64,000 nucleotides of DNA from NCBI GenBank assembly GCA_943788915.1, contig CALSSD010000010.1:232451-296450 (forward strand), given 5' to 3'. The position numbers are program-made. Positions within the stretch are counted from its first letter, which is position 1. Each line of letters opens with the position of its first letter. This stretch comes from an uncultured Acidimicrobiales bacterium (GTDB lineage: Bacteria; Actinomycetota; Acidimicrobiia; Acidimicrobiales; UBA10347). Of this stretch, positions 27,001 to 33,000 are shown in pieces.

Positions 27001-30000
27001 CTCGGGCCCACCTACTGTGGCCACAATACAGTTCGGAACCGACGGTGTTCGGGGTCGCGCTTATGAAGATCTGTCGCTGGCGGACGCGTTCCTTATCGGA
27101 CGCGCCGCCGCCGACGTTTTTGGCGGTACCACCGCGGTTATCGGACGCGATACCCGCGAGTCAGGACCGGCGCTGACTGCAGCGTTGGCCGCTGGCCTCG
27201 CCGCAGGTGGCATCGAGGCGCTCGATCTAGGCGTGGCTCCCACGCCAGCGGTGGCATTTGTTGCTGGACAACGCGGTGCTGTTGGTGCGGTGGTGTCGGC
27301 GTCGCATAACCCGTGGTTCGATAACGGCATCAAGCTGTTTAGCCCCCAGGGCTCCAAGCTCAGTGATGCAGATCAAGCTGCGGTCGAGGCCCGGCTTGGA
27401 CAACTCGACCCGTCACTGGCCACCGTTGAGCCGTCCCAAACGATTCGCGTCGATTCAGGCCGAAGTCGGCGGTTGGGTGCAAGCCGTTCAAAGCTCGATC
27501 GATGTCGACCTGACCGGCCTCCATGTGGTTGTCGACTGCGCTCATGGTGCAGCGAGTCATGTTGTGGCTCCGGCGTTGGCTGATCTTGGCGCCCAGGTCA
27601 CCCCAATGTGCAACCAGCCCGATGGCCGCAATATCAACGAAGCGTGCGGCTCCACGTACCCACAATCGCTTGCGAAGGCAGTAGTCGACGCCAACGCCGA
27701 CATTGGCCTCGCCCTCGACGGTGATGCCGACCGGCTTCTGGCTGTGGACCATAGGGGCACCGTGGTCGATGGCGACCAAATTATGGCGATGCTGGCCCTC
27801 GACATGGACCAGCGAGGCCTGCTGGCAGGTTCTCAGCTTGTGGTTACGGTCATGTCAAACCTGGGTCTGCTCCGTTCCATGGACGCCGCCGGGATCTCCG
27901 TTGAGGTCACACCAGTTGGTGATCGCAACGTGCTGATAGCGCTCGATCGGCTCGGAGCGAACCTCGGTGGGGAACAGTCGGGTCACCTGATCTTTACTGA
28001 CCACGGAGGTACCGGCGACGGACTTCTTAGCGGCGTGCAGCTTCTCGGTTTGCTGAAGCGCTCCGGCAGGACGATTCGTGATCTTGCAGCGTCCTCCATG
28101 GTGGTTTTTCCACAAGTTTTGCAGAACGTGCGGGTGACTCAACCGATGCCAGATATCGCTGACCGGATAGCGAAAGAAATCGCCAAGGCCGAGGCCGCTC
28201 TTGGCGAGCAGGGGCGGGTGTTGGTGCGGGCTTCGGGGACGGAACCGGTCATTCGAGTCATGGTCGAGGCATCGGAACAAGCGCTAGCACAGCAGACTTG
28301 TGACGGGTTGTGCGCAGCGGTGGCCGAGCTCGTCTGACCGTGTGGCGGGTGGCTGTCGCTATCTGCGGGCCGGGGCATCCTAGAGTGTTGCCTTATGTGC
28401 GGAATTGTTGCCATTGTCCGTCGACAATCGACTCGTGCGGTGCCAAGCGCGGCTCAGGTGCTGACGTTGGTGAATGCCGCAGCGGCAGCATTCGATGCCG
28501 ACAGCGTCACGTCGCTTGATGGGTGTCGGGCTTCGCTGCAGGAACTCAATTCGCTGCTGCTGGGTGTTCCCGGCGCCGTTGCGCTGCTGGAATCGCCGGG
28601 TCTGAGTGCTGAGATCGCCGCCCAACTCGATCCCCTGATGAAAACACTCACCACGACTGCCGACGATGCGGTTGCCAGCGGTGAGATTATTGCCGAGGAT
28701 CTCAATGCCGCCCGCCGAGCGATCAAGGATGTGTTGTGGGCGGTACTCCGTGACCGATTAAGCGTCCCAGAGGGCATCCGTGCGTTGGGTGGAGCTGGGG
28801 AATCCGCCGCCGTGATCGCCGCCCTCTGTTCGGTGCACGACGCCCTGTCTGCGCTTGACCGTCTTGAAGTGCGAGGGCGCGATTCCCTCGGTCTGCATCT
28901 TTTCGTAAGCGGTCATGGTCAAGATCTCGACGAACCGGCGCTCGCCCGTGCAATCTCGGACCGCAGTGGCGATGCGTCGTTCGTCAACAACGCGGTCCGT
29001 CGTGTGGGTGATGTCGTCAGTTTCGTGTACAAGGAATCTGCCGAAATCGGTGAACTGGGCGACAACACCGCTGCGCTGCGTCGGGCGATTGCTGCCGATG
29101 AACTGCTGGTTCGGTTGCTGACCAACGATGGGGCTCAGGCCATGGTGGTTGGTCATACCCGGTGGGCCAGCGTGGGCATTATCAGCGAAGCGAACGCACA
29201 CCCGGTCAACAGCGAAGCAGCTGGGCGGGGCAACGATCACTATTTCGTTGCTGCGCTAAACGGTGACGTCGACAACTATGCCGATCTTGCCGCCGAAGCC
29301 GGACTGTCCTTCCCCGCAACGATCACGACCGATGCCAAGGTCATCCCAGCGCTGGTTGCTGATCGTGTCCGCAATGGCGAAGATCCGACCGAGGCCTTTC
29401 GGTCCTGTGTCGCGTCGTTCGATGGATCGGTTGCGATCGCACTCGCAGGTGCACACGAACCCGATGTGCTGAGACTTGCACAACGCGGCAGCGGCCAAGC
29501 CATTTATGTCGGTCTAGCCGAGGACACCTTTGTTGTCGCGAGCGAGCCTTACGGCATTGTTGAACTAACCCCGAACTATGTGCGGCTCGACGGCGAAACG
29601 CCGGTAGATCCAGCCAACCCAGCCTCGGCTCGAGGCCAGATTTTGACCCTCGACCGGAACTATGCGGGCACGCTGCAGGGCCTGACTCGCCAGAGCTACG
29701 ACCGCACGCTGTTGCCCTTGCTTGAATCAGACATCGTGACCGCCGAGATCACGACAAGTGACATTGATCGTGCCGGGTATCCGCACTTCCTACTCAAAGA
29801 AGTCTCGGAAGCACCCTCGTCCTTCCGCACCACGTTGCGAGGCAAGCTGATCGAATCCAACGGCCACTTCGAGGTTCGGGTCGGCGATCGCACCCTGCCG
29901 CCAACGCTCCGTGAACGGTTGGCAGATGGGTCCATCACCCGTGTCTTGGGTATTGGTCAAGGCACCGCAGCGATCGCTGCGCGTTCCTTTGCCGAGGCAC

Positions 30001-33000
30001 TCGCCGCCCAAGTCGATGGGGGGCGACTGCAAGTCAACTACGACCTGGCAACCGAGCTTTCCGGTTTTGGTATGGAGACCGACATGAGTGAGATGCTCAT
30101 CGTTGCGGTCAGCCAATCAGGCACAACTACCGACACGAATCGCACGGTTGACCTGGCCCGTGAACGGGGTGCGTCGGTTATCGGCATCGTCAACCGTCGG
30201 GGTAGCGATCTGACCGACAAGGCCGACGGCGTGTTGTACACCAGCGATGGCAGAGACGTCGAGATGAGCGTCGCCTCGACCAAAGCGTTCTACAGCCAGA
30301 TCGCTGCCGGGTTTCTTCTGGCTACCGCAATTGCAGACCAGGTTGGCCGTTCAACTAGCGCCGATGCCATGACGCAGCGGGTTCTCGCCGGGCTGGTCGA
30401 GTTGCCACAAGCAATGGAGACGGTCATCGAGTCACGCGACCGTATTGGTGAGATCGCGGCCAGAGTTGCACCGAGCGAGCCGTATTGGGCAATCGTTGGT
30501 TCCGGCAGTAACCGAATTGCCGCCGAAGAGGTCCGAGTCAAACTCAGCGAACTTTGCTACAAAGCGATCGCCTGCGACAGCATCGAAGACAAGAAACATA
30601 TTGACCTGTCCTCAGAGCCGCTGATCTTGGTGTGTGCTGCTGGGCTGCAAGGAAGCATCGCCGATGATGCTGTCAAAGAGGTCGCCATTTACCGGGCGCA
30701 CAAGGCGACCCCCGTCGTTATCGCAGCGACCGACGAGACTCGGTTCGGCACCACCGATGTGATTGGTGTGCCGACCGTTGAACCCGAGCTTGGCTTTGTC
30801 CTGTCCGCAGTTGTTGGCCATCTGTTTGGTTATGAAGCAGCGCTGGCGATCGATGCGCTCGCCATGCCGCTTCGTAAGCTGCGCTCCTCAATCGAGACCG
30901 AGATTGCCTCTCAGCCCGATAGCTACGGCTCTGACATGCTGGCTCGGCTGCAACCAGCGATCGTGCAAGCCCGGTCCACATTTAGCAATGAACTACGTCA
31001 ACGTCGGTACAACGGCCATCTCTCTAGTTCCATTGCGGTCGACTTGGCCCTGCTGCTGCGGTACGCAACTGGGGTCAGCGAGTTGGGTTCCTACGGTCTG
31101 GACTTCGGCAAGGTCGGCACTCCTGCCGTCGTGATCGATGATCTCGCCCGTGTGCTGGCCAAGGTCATCGACGAACTGACTCGGCCGGTCGATGCCATTA
31201 AACATCAGGCGAAGACGGTCACCGTTGGCATCAGCCGTACCGACGAGAGCCTGCTCCACGTGCCGCTGGTGGCAACAGCCATCGAGGCAGGAGCATCGCG
31301 CGATGCATTGGCGTACAGCACGCTGCGCACCCTTGCGGGTATCGACCCCGCTGTCGTCGAAGTGCTCGGCTTCACTCGCTATGGCATCCAGGGCGACGTT
31401 GCCGGCGACGGCGCCACGATTTCGATTATCGATCGAGGCGGCGTGTCCGTCGGTATCCCATCTCGAGTTGACTCCGACCCGGTGTTGCGGGGTACAAAAC
31501 ATCGAGTTGCAACCGAGCGCCAGGTGCTGATCACCCGTGGTCGACGTGACCAACGCCTGATCGCGTTTGTCCCGGAGGTGAAGGATGCCCAGACGGTCGG
31601 CATCACCCTGCTCTACATCAAGCTGGCTGATTCCCTTGAATTGAACCTGGTGCGGGCTGTGCTCCAGGCGTATCGCAGCCGTTATGAACAGATTCGTGAC
31701 GCCGTGCTCGAGACCGAGGTATCGTTCGACGAGGTCCCGTTGACATCGATCCCGCTCGACGAGTTACTTGTGCACCCAGTTGTGCTCATCGCTGACCGCT
31801 GGCGGACGAACGCGAGCTGACGCTCGCCCTATTCATGATTCCAATCATCACTCCGGCTGAGATGAGGGAGATCGACGCGAATGCACCGGAAACTCTCGAC
31901 GAGCTGATCGCCCGGGCTGCGTGGCATGTTGCGCGCAACGCTCGTCAGATGCTGGGCGGCGTATACGGCCGGCGAGTGATCGCGATCGCTGGTCCGGGAA
32001 ACAACGGCGCCGATGCCAGGGTGGCAGCCGGCATCTTGCGCCGCTGGGGCGTTCACGTCGAGATTGTTGCACCCGATACGAAGGAGCTGGCGCCGGCCGA
32101 TCTTGTCATCGATGGTGCCTTTGGCACCGGCACGAATCGTGCGTACGAGCCGCCACACGTCGCCGATGGCGTGCCAATTTTGGCTGTCGATTCACCTAGT
32201 GGACTCGACGGTCTCACTGGCGAGGCGATGGGCCACCCGTTGGGAGCGACGAGGACCGTCACGTTTGCTGGCCTGAAGCCGGGGCTGTTGCTAGGTGATG
32301 GGCCTGACCTTGCGGGTCAGGTCGACGTTGTTGCTCTTGGCCTCGATACATCGTCTGCCACCGCATGGCTGGTGACCGAAGGTGATGTCGCACCCCGACT
32401 CCCTCGACGGCGGCGCAGCGATCACAAATGGAAACGCGGCGTTTATGTCGTCGGTGGATCTCCCGGCATGTACGGGGCTCCTTTCCTGGCTTCGAGCGCA
32501 GCCCTTCGAAGCGGGGCTGGGATTGTCTGGTGTGGGCTGCCCGGTCAACCGCCACCTGGCACGGCGTCGGAGATCGTCTTTAAGGACCTGCCTGCCAGCG
32601 GCTGGGGCCCAGACGTTCTTCGTGACAGCTCCAGGTTCGGGTCGGTTGTGATTGGCTGCGGTATGGGTGCAGAACACAGCGCCGATGTGGCCGTTGTCGC
32701 TGGTAGCTGCCCGAAACCCATCGTTATTGATGGCGGGGGACTACGTGCATTGGGTCGGCTGCCTCAGTTGGCGCCGCATGTCGTGCTCACACCACACGAC
32801 GCAGAGTTTGAGTCGCTCGCGGGTGAACGGCCCGGCCCTGACCGTTTCGCAGCGACCCGCTCCCTGGCAGAGCGCACGGGTGCAACGGTGTTACTGAAGG
32901 GTCCACTCACCATCGTTGCCGCACCCGACGGCACCTGCCTTGCATCGGCCGCCGGCGACGAGCGGCTTGCGACTGCAGGTTCGGGCGATGTCCTCGCTGG

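Follow-up and report, generated by a model that had tools for sequence, protein, structure and literature searches.

Genes and sequence quality at the locus

Within the window, a 64-kb stretch of DNA from an uncultured Acidimicrobiales bacterium that was analysed as a whole, a gene termed here long-form glmS is found on the forward strand in the order rplM-rpsI-glmM-[long-form glmS]-nnr-alr, which is the usual rpsI-glmM-glmS place noted in the preliminary description. The upstream part of this conserved slot is formed by rplM and rpsI (26147..26997) and by glmM (27017..28337), the gene for phosphoglucosamine mutase, which acts next in the pathway, while nnr (YjeF) and alr (31835..34484) make up the downstream part. 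Between them, long-form glmS occupies 28395..31820 (+) as an open frame of 1,141 aa that starts MCGIV (ATG-TGC), as had been described.

The protein is matched by Pfam GATase_6 at residues 249-384 and SIS at 516-644, and it scores 219 bits with TIGR01135, under the curated cut-off of 418 bits, in agreement with the earlier domain assignment. A whole-genome search gave it as the sole SIS-domain match, and the second TIGR01135 match of the genome (92 bits, contig C5) spans profile positions 1-224 only, so that its status as the only GlmS homologue of the genome was upheld.

The adjoining glmM is split by one extra base near 27443. Contigs of the three runs covering the site all have one base fewer at 27443 or 27446, and the frameshift is an assembly error. 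Local errors had been suspected from this truncated glmM; the suspicion was justified for glmM itself and not for long-form glmS, which is free of indels in the contigs of four out of four runs. Contigs from two RNA libraries also cover the gene; as DNA carry-over is possible in these libraries, this is not taken as a sign of expression. An Rfam search of the whole 64-kb window found no glmS ribozyme or other cis-acting RNA, and no sigma-70-type promoter was found in 25700-33500.

Domain architecture and conserved residues

The AF2 model built from a 128-row alignment predicts the whole chain as a single ordered body (pLDDT 92.8, pTM 0.87), including the added parts that had previously appeared to be of low confidence. 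When superposed on E. coli GlmS (4amv; Z 42.9, rmsd 4.2, 594 of 608 residues aligned), model residues 2-945 lie on chain residues 1-608, with residue 2 equivalent to E. coli 1 and residue 945 to 608, and the structural alignment gives about 25% identity.

The chain begins with Met and the Ntn nucleophile Cys2 on the first beta-strand (residues 1-10, 28395..28424), Cys2 being present in 41 of 41 class sequences. Insert 1 (11-137, 28425..28805) follows, separating strand 1 from the first glutaminase-domain helix. It is a variable helical bundle of 134 aa net, with model helices at 19-32, 38-66, 70-95 and 101-130, at least 90% conservation in 5 of 127 columns (4%) and no match in a Pfam search; the helical insertion described earlier is thus real, and the glutaminase domain holds a second net insertion of about 49 aa (163-254, placed within residues 176-245). 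The remaining class II glutaminase domain (138-455, 28806..29759) gives Z 30.4 to 1xff and includes Arg160, Arg256, Trp257, His269, Asn289, Gly290 and Asp313 as residues of note. SIS subdomain 1 (456-660, 29760..30374) carries the SQSGTT phosphate loop and Ser628, and SIS subdomain 2 (661-822, 30375..30860) carries Lys716, Glu719 and His735, each in 128 of 128 sequences.

The rest of the chain had been read as one C-terminal extension of about 300 aa after the second SIS domain. Instead, it comprises insert 2 (823-926, 30861..31172), a helical bundle of about 109 aa, conserved to 90% or more in 7% of its columns, ahead of the C-loop; an internal C-loop (927-948, 31173..31238), in which 927-945 is in register with the canonical tail; and a region of about 196 aa (949-1141) formed by a PAS/GAF/Cache-like domain (949-1080, 31239..31634; model pLDDT 96.6) and a helical tail (1081-1141, 31635..31817) with the invariant Glu1106. 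No other block of the protein is as conserved as the C-loop, where 18 of 22 columns reach 90% or more, and the earlier statement that the canonical tail is no longer terminal was correct. Comparing the two inserts and the helical tail with one another gave no match that would indicate internal duplication.

Passages of a 2022 review list Cys1, Glu488, His504 and Lys603 as catalytic in E. coli GlmS (PMC9272926). Their equivalents are Cys2, found in 123 of 128 aligned sequences, and Glu719, His735 and Lys940, found in 128 of 128 each; Lys716 and Thr943 correspond to E. coli Lys485 and Thr606. The equivalents of the class II glutaminase residues Arg26, Arg73, Trp74, Asn98, Gly99 and Asp123 are likewise kept in all 128 sequences. 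Alignment and model together show that the Lys940-bearing lid, though no longer terminal, keeps its canonical position. Among the ligand residues His77, Ser303, Ser347, Gln348, Ser349, Thr352 and Ser401, five of seven are kept, and the other two are replaced clade-wide: His77 (position 260) by Val, Asn or Ile, and Ser303 (position 525) by Ala in 127 of 128. The Tyr28 equivalent (position 162) is Arg in 128 of 128. These three positions are ligand or lid contacts according to passages of PMC7000685.

Residues 456-948 were predicted as a homodimer with a score of 0.91 versus 0.00 for the best control. Between runs, at least 84% of contacts recur, and partner pLDDT is 90 or more; among solved homo-pairs 20 of 30 reach the mark applied, among single chains 1 of 23. 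The predicted interface takes in residues 714-719 and 734-742, and its SIS share may stem from resemblance to solved GlmS dimers. The contacts with the lowest error are those of insert 2, a part with no solved counterpart, which is predicted to form a second two-fold interface through helix 878-892.

A fold search with residues 949-1080 listed 50 matches of Z 5.2-6.8, and the titles of almost all of them name sensor folds of the PAS/GAF/Cache type. The best whole-domain match, which also covers the helical tail, was L-GDH180 (7jsr 174-360; Z 8.6, rmsd 4.9, 162 of 193 residues aligned, 10% identity); the others have Z of at most 7.1, identity is 10-16% overall, and all of these matches are middling. 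Foldseek with this domain gave no match at E 0.001 or better, Pfam none for 949-1080 of the protein, and a PDB sequence search nothing significant; GAF_3 was matched in 1 of 130 family members (E 0.00068). The model suggests a PAS/GAF/Cache-like fold from matches that are consistent but middling, and a fold shared with sensor domains is no proof of function. Homology to the L-GDH180 segment was rejected, since the profile-profile probability of 0.4% was no better than that of shuffled controls, and it is the modelled fold resemblance alone that stands. Only 15 of the 132 columns of the domain are at least 90% conserved; in the 128-row alignment Tyr996, Gly1033, Lys1035, Gly1049 and Asp1052 are invariant, and Arg1024 and Arg1054 are found in 124 of 128. 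The best 120 of 643 matches to the end domain, from a set limited to proteins of 371-2,000 aa, resemble long GlmS or fragments of it, and atlas scores reached at most 0.79, which weakly suggests that the domain is absent outside GlmS.

Distribution and history of the long form

Of 201 sampled Acidimicrobiia genomes, 106 have the long form, 94 the canonical form, none both and one (G022, 92% complete) neither. Of the loci fetched, 37 of 40 with the long form and 16 of 19 with the canonical form have rplM-rpsI-glmM upstream, and the relatives at all 40 class loci are full length (1,117-1,188 aa). All 120 listed database matches are relatives, nearly all of full length. Rather than being lineage-specific, as first supposed, the long form crosses phyla: it is also present in further actinobacterial classes and in Planctomycetota, Desulfobacterota, Eremiobacterota and other groups, and a Desulfobacterota/Planctomycetota subclade has a leader preceding the catalytic Cys. 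Named carriers are Ilumatobacter coccineus, Aquihabitans sp. G128 and Desulfonema ishimotonii. Since these are environmental bacteria, the value as a drug target proposed earlier is unsupported.

The claim that the two forms exclude each other holds within the class and fails outside it, where genome G301 keeps an over-cut-off canonical copy together with a long form. In the phylum of genome G478, 89 of 121 genomes have the canonical form, 22 a long-frame match under the cut-off and one both, the second copy there being without Cys1. At least six changes between the forms were counted on the neighbour-gene tree, and a single origin of the long-form-bearing group, that is, a single switch, was rejected (p-AU 2e-7). 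Displacement of the canonical enzyme by a distinct GlmS is retained on residues, slot, exclusion in 200 of the 201 class genomes and the scarcity of NagB-like matches among long-form genomes (20 of 106), but not as one event. It is proposed that long and canonical GlmS are interchangeable and were repeatedly swapped at one locus. Around non-syntenic copies no shared special pathway was seen (46 ORFs scanned at nine loci).

Proposed function and comparison with known systems

Glucosamine-6-phosphate synthase catalyses the first step in making the amino sugars of the cell wall. The genome needs glucosamine-6-phosphate because glmU-like and murA-like genes are present, and from sequence and model the long-form gene most likely encodes the only such synthase of the bacterium, with chemistry that is probably ordinary. 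By analogy with E. coli GlmS and human GFAT-1, Cys2 would hydrolyse glutamine after removal of Met, and the ammonia would pass to fructose-6-phosphate in the SIS-SIS site. Isomerisation would be completed in the homodimer by Glu719, Lys940 and His735 of the partner subunit. Insert 2 is predicted to clamp the dimer through the second two-fold interface, and the end domain, tethered straight to the lid, may bind a small metabolite, restrain or free the lid and so tune activity, a step to which we give about even chances. Regulatory or partner-binding roles had been ascribed to the added parts; the insert 2 interface and the sensor-like fold of the end domain, both modelled, agree with this, and regulation itself stays a candidate role. 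Taken as a whole, the proposal (a GlmS of a cross-phylum long-form clade, with lid kept, insert 2 clamp, end-domain tuning and locus swaps) is judged to be probably right.

An ordinary enzyme whose extra modules serve structure only, stabilising the dimer or oligomer and holding the lid, with a ligand-free end domain, comes fairly close to even chances. The best-defined predicted dimer contacts fall in insert 2, both inserts are poorly conserved, the chain is modelled as a single ordered unit, and canonical GlmS has repeatedly taken its place with no visible change of neighbours. Against it, the end domain and tail keep the polar residues Tyr996, Lys1035, Asp1052 and Glu1106 invariant, and Arg1024 and Arg1054 nearly so, across phyla, and the best whole-domain match is an N-terminal segment of a glutamate dehydrogenase that is proposed to be sensory. 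A GlmS-derived amidotransferase whose specificity has changed (to a different amide donor, to free ammonia or to a different ketose phosphate), with glucosamine-6-phosphate made by, for example, reverse NagB, would fit the low identity and sub-cut-off score as well as the fixed replacements at the His77, Ser303 and Tyr28 equivalents. The source genome has two nagB-like genes, and a reverse-deaminase bypass is therefore possible there; since G301 keeps both forms, a division of labour is conceivable. Nevertheless, this reading is improbable, since a NagB-like match (one query) was found in only 20 of the 106 long-form class genomes and in none of the other 86, canonical glmS in none of the 106, glmM adjoins the gene in most loci, and the non-syntenic copies have no common pathway around them. 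As for a normal glmS fused or mis-assembled with neighbouring genes, an assembly contamination of 7.7% and the glmM error next door would favour it, but full-length relatives, indel-free run contigs and inserts lying within the catalytic domains refute it, leaving it a negligible chance.

If the enzyme is a GlmS, as preferred here, the enzyme through which all envelope amino-sugar synthesis is gated would have a second architecture, used by roughly half of the Acidimicrobiia sampled (106 of 201) and by bacteria of several further phyla. Proteins of this form are often labelled just "SIS domain-containing protein" and score under the cut-off, and therefore pipelines may call such genomes glmS-less. 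The long form would allow a direct test of lid coupling between the two active sites, and it may hold a new allosteric input. Control of bacterial glmS at the RNA level is known. It is conceivable, though we lean against it, that long-form enzymes make up a class of GlmS controlled at the protein level by parts of their own chain, combining a metabolite-sensing PAS/GAF-like domain joined to the lid, a helical dimer clamp and, in the Desulfobacterota/Planctomycetota subclade, a zymogen that would have to lose its leader before Cys1 is free; if true, this would be an alternative to RNA-level control, and the lid would not need to be terminal.

PurF-type Ntn amidotransferases are made with a propeptide. 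The leader-bearing subclade resembles them in having a leader, putatively cleaved, before the Ntn Cys, unlike the protein of the source genome, which starts Met-Cys; a literature search on this propeptide found no paper. L-GDH180, a large glutamate dehydrogenase of M. smegmatis, gives the end domain its best whole-domain structural match at 10% identity; this template is a 6.27 Å structure, and sensing is a proposal there too. Human GFAT-1 (6r4e) shares the fold (Z 41.9, 611 residues aligned), and eukaryotic GFAT/Gfa1 is likewise enlarged and, in passages of PMC9272926, subject to protein-level regulation by UDP-GlcNAc feedback; unlike the long form, GFAT has a terminal C-loop and about 690 aa, with neither insert 2 nor a PAS/GAF-like domain. 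Bacterial GlmS (EC 2.6.1.16; E. coli 4amv, 2j6h, 1jxa; TIGR01135) has in common with it the Ntn glutaminase and two SIS subdomains, the catalytic and glutaminase residues including the Lys485 and Thr606 equivalents, the predicted homodimer and the glmM neighbour. Described GlmS subunits have 589-716 aa in passages of the same 2022 review, whereas the long form has 1,141 aa, an internal C-loop, two helical inserts, a PAS/GAF-like end domain, replaced His77, Ser303 and Tyr28, a score under the family cut-off and, in one subclade, a leader. Literature searches, whose coverage included few subscription journals, found no paper on long-form GlmS. The GlmS family itself is known; what is new is a cross-phylum architecture of double length with the lid inside the chain.

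The gene, its neighbours and the assembly

The giant GlmS gene (28395-31820, + strand) is an open reading frame of 1,141 aa starting with MCGIV, as the preliminary description had it; a subunit range of 589-716 aa is given for GlmS in excerpts of PMC9272926. Pfam assigned GATase_6 to residues 249-384 and SIS to 516-644, and the TIGR01135 score of 219 bits falls below the cut-off of 418. The gene was also correctly described as the sole GlmS homologue, being the only SIS match in a search of the genome, where the single remaining TIGR01135 match covered the glutaminase part alone. 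It is flanked by rplM, rpsI and glmM upstream and by nnr, alr and tsa genes downstream.

The glmM gene (27017-28337, + strand) is split into two frames by one extra base near 27443. Since one base is absent at 27443 or 27446 in the contigs of all three runs spanning this site, the split comes from an assembly error, which leaves the giant GlmS finding untouched. The local sequence errors suspected earlier are thus real in glmM but not in the giant gene, where contigs of four runs showed no indel. Another phosphohexomutase gene of this genome, lying beyond the window (G000:C10:498649-499969), is seemingly in two frames too, which suggests further indel errors. A glmU-like gene of the same genome (locus L251, 1354-2361; 355-aa frame) matched only profile positions 2-328 of 452; either the gene is naturally short or the assembly is broken here as well. 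Also in the window are a GT4 glycosyltransferase gene with a QTMAN_N domain (tRNA-queuosine mannosyltransferase N-terminal; 34500-35606), lying between alr and tsaE and found at the same place in several relatives, and a bacterial alpha-2-macroglobulin gene (19672-25140, - strand; 1,822 aa).

Anatomy, active site and internal lid

Giant GlmS was put in register with E. coli GlmS. The first strand is followed by 134 extra residues, and about 49 more lie within the stretch 163-254. A further 109 separate the last SIS helix from the C-loop, 196 come beyond the C-loop, and about 45 are scattered along the chain. The supposed 300-aa C-terminal extension is therefore not one unit but three parts: the 109-residue insert, the C-loop and the 196-residue domain. 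The canonical tail, VDxPRNLAK(S/T)VTVE, has its in-register counterpart at residues 932-945, VDAIKHQAKTVTVG, and so is indeed no longer terminal. The C-loop block is the most conserved of the protein: its mean identity is 96% across 41 sequences of the class, and in the set of 128 sequences conservation reaches 90% or more in 18 of its 22 columns. The AlphaFold2 model (128-row alignment; pLDDT 92.8, pTM 0.87) superposed on E. coli 4amv with a Z of 42.9 and an rmsd of 4.2 over 594 residues, model 2-945 aligning with chain 1-608. From this alignment and the motif in register, the lid is predicted to sit in its canonical place, yet inside the chain and no longer at its end.

The catalytic residues of E. 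coli GlmS are Cys1, Glu488, His504 and Lys603 (PMC9272926, in part). The equivalents of the last three, Glu719, His735 and Lys940, were found in 128/128 rows each, and Cys2 in 123, with a gap at that place in three. Arg160, Arg256, Trp257, Asn289, Gly290, Asp313, Gln574, Ser575, Thr578, Ser628 and Lys716 were also invariant. Three known contacts are replaced throughout the giant clade, which tells against a simple reading: His77 by Val, Asn or Ile260, Ser303 by Ala525 and Tyr28 by Arg162. According to excerpts of PMC7000685, the human equivalents contact glutamate, sugar phosphate and C-loop, respectively, and terminal tags on GFAT-1 impair the enzyme. Given these replacements, the coupling between lid and glutaminase has probably been rewired.

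Two copies of residues 456-948 were predicted as a dimer with a score of 0.91, against 0.00 for the best of three controls, with contact agreement of at least 84% and pLDDT of at least 90; among solved homo-pairs 20 of 30 attained this mark, among single chains 1 of 23. The interface takes in the His735 loop and the Lys716-Glu719 helix. An interface is expected there from the isomerase site shared across the GlmS dimer (PMC10087520, in part), and the SIS part may echo solved GlmS dimers. The lowest-error contacts fall in insert 2, the helical bundle at 823-926, where residues 873-886 meet across the two-fold in a region without solved counterpart.

The isolated end domain (949-1141) was modelled with a pLDDT of 96.6. 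A Foldseek search returned nothing at E 0.001 or better, and profile-profile comparison with 20 dehydrogenase sequences was negative. Among the 50 matches listed in a wide structure search, nearly all had titles of sensor folds of the PAS, GAF or Cache type, with middling Z of 5.2-6.8 across the first ~130 residues; the chances of the putative sensing role are about even.

Leaders ahead of the catalytic Cys are removed in PurF, and those carried by part of this family may be lost likewise. The window's protein has none. Among 151 distant full-length proteins, 64 carry a leader of 17-85 aa and 74 start Met-Cys, the rest being two short upstream overcalls and 11 without a start. At 6 of 135 loci no start codon stands immediately before Cys; the frame there continues upstream into an open leader bearing the same motif. 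In the tree, every leader-bearing row belongs to a single clade of 23 rows, some of them Met-Cys members. Within a leader subclade (loci L194, L196, L197, L199, L200, L201; proteins P0285-P0388) the leader is conserved, with no start codon at Cys-1; locus L193 keeps a motif remnant upstream of its Met-Cys start.

Replacement within the class and range beyond it

In 201 genomes of the class, canonical GlmS (over the TIGR01135 cut-off) was found in 94 and giant GlmS (by its C-terminal part) in 106, one of them the unpublished G168, on which no conclusion depends by itself; none had both, and one (G022, 92% complete) had neither. The forms split cleanly along families. Upstream rplM-rpsI-glmM was present at 37 of 40 giant and 16 of 19 canonical loci fetched. 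A tree built from RplM, RpsI and GlmM of 58 loci implies at least six switches between the two forms. A single clade of giant carriers was rejected (p-AU 2.1e-7) after seven rows were dropped, four long or compositionally odd and three of another class. The giant GlmS tree (FastTree) mostly mirrors the host tree within the class, and the nested canonical copies cluster with one another; as the trees are unrooted, gain and reversion are indistinguishable.

A possible bypass of GlmS is offered by two nagB-like genes of the window's genome, although with the query used such a match turned up in no more than 20 of the 106 genomes that carry the giant form. The two (L249, L250) are 93% identical, and two large glutamate dehydrogenase matches of equal score (L239, L248) lie on different contigs; such duplicates are consistent with the assembly's 7.7% contamination figure. 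Another long-form genome encodes an isomerase-only SIS-SIS protein (L092, G198:C8:131768-132841; 380-aa frame, TIGR01135 285 bits), probably a deaminase-type paralogue.

The form had been called lineage-specific, which did not hold, since it occurs in other actinobacterial classes (11 matching genomes among 301 sampled) and other phyla. The statement that no genome has both forms holds for the class but not outside it: of five such genomes checked, one (G301, contamination 5%) carries a canonical gene as well, at the usual place beside glmM. The two G301 copies are at loci L173 and L174, the long form lying away from that place and adjoining a glycoside hydrolase family 38 gene. In the phylum of G478 (Planctomycetota), canonical GlmS was found in 89 of 121 genomes and a long-frame match below the cut-off in 22, with the internal lid motif in 20/20 fetched long-frame sequences. 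G502 carries both forms, Cys1 being gone from the short copy (L252, 5472-7274), which is of canonical length (529 bits), starts MSG rather than MCG and has a degenerate tail. Named members at ~35-43% identity occur in Desulfonema, Desulfobacter, Smithella, Syntrophaceae, Eremiobacterota/Xenobia, Riflebacteria, Armatimonadetes and Planctomycetota. The giant C-terminal profile matched 813 clusters (50% identity), and fragments are numerous among them.

Relation to known GlmS

The giant GlmS family is real and widespread; the proposal of a drug target found no support. In databases its members go by the name GlmS or 'SIS domain-containing protein', and no publication on it was found in the literature, though supplements, beyond that search, could list such genes. 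Judged from residues and fold, the protein is very probably a working GlmS. Compared with the canonical enzyme, it keeps the GlmS residues and fold and lacks both an equivalog score over the cut-off and a terminal lid, so it is classed as a variant GlmS.
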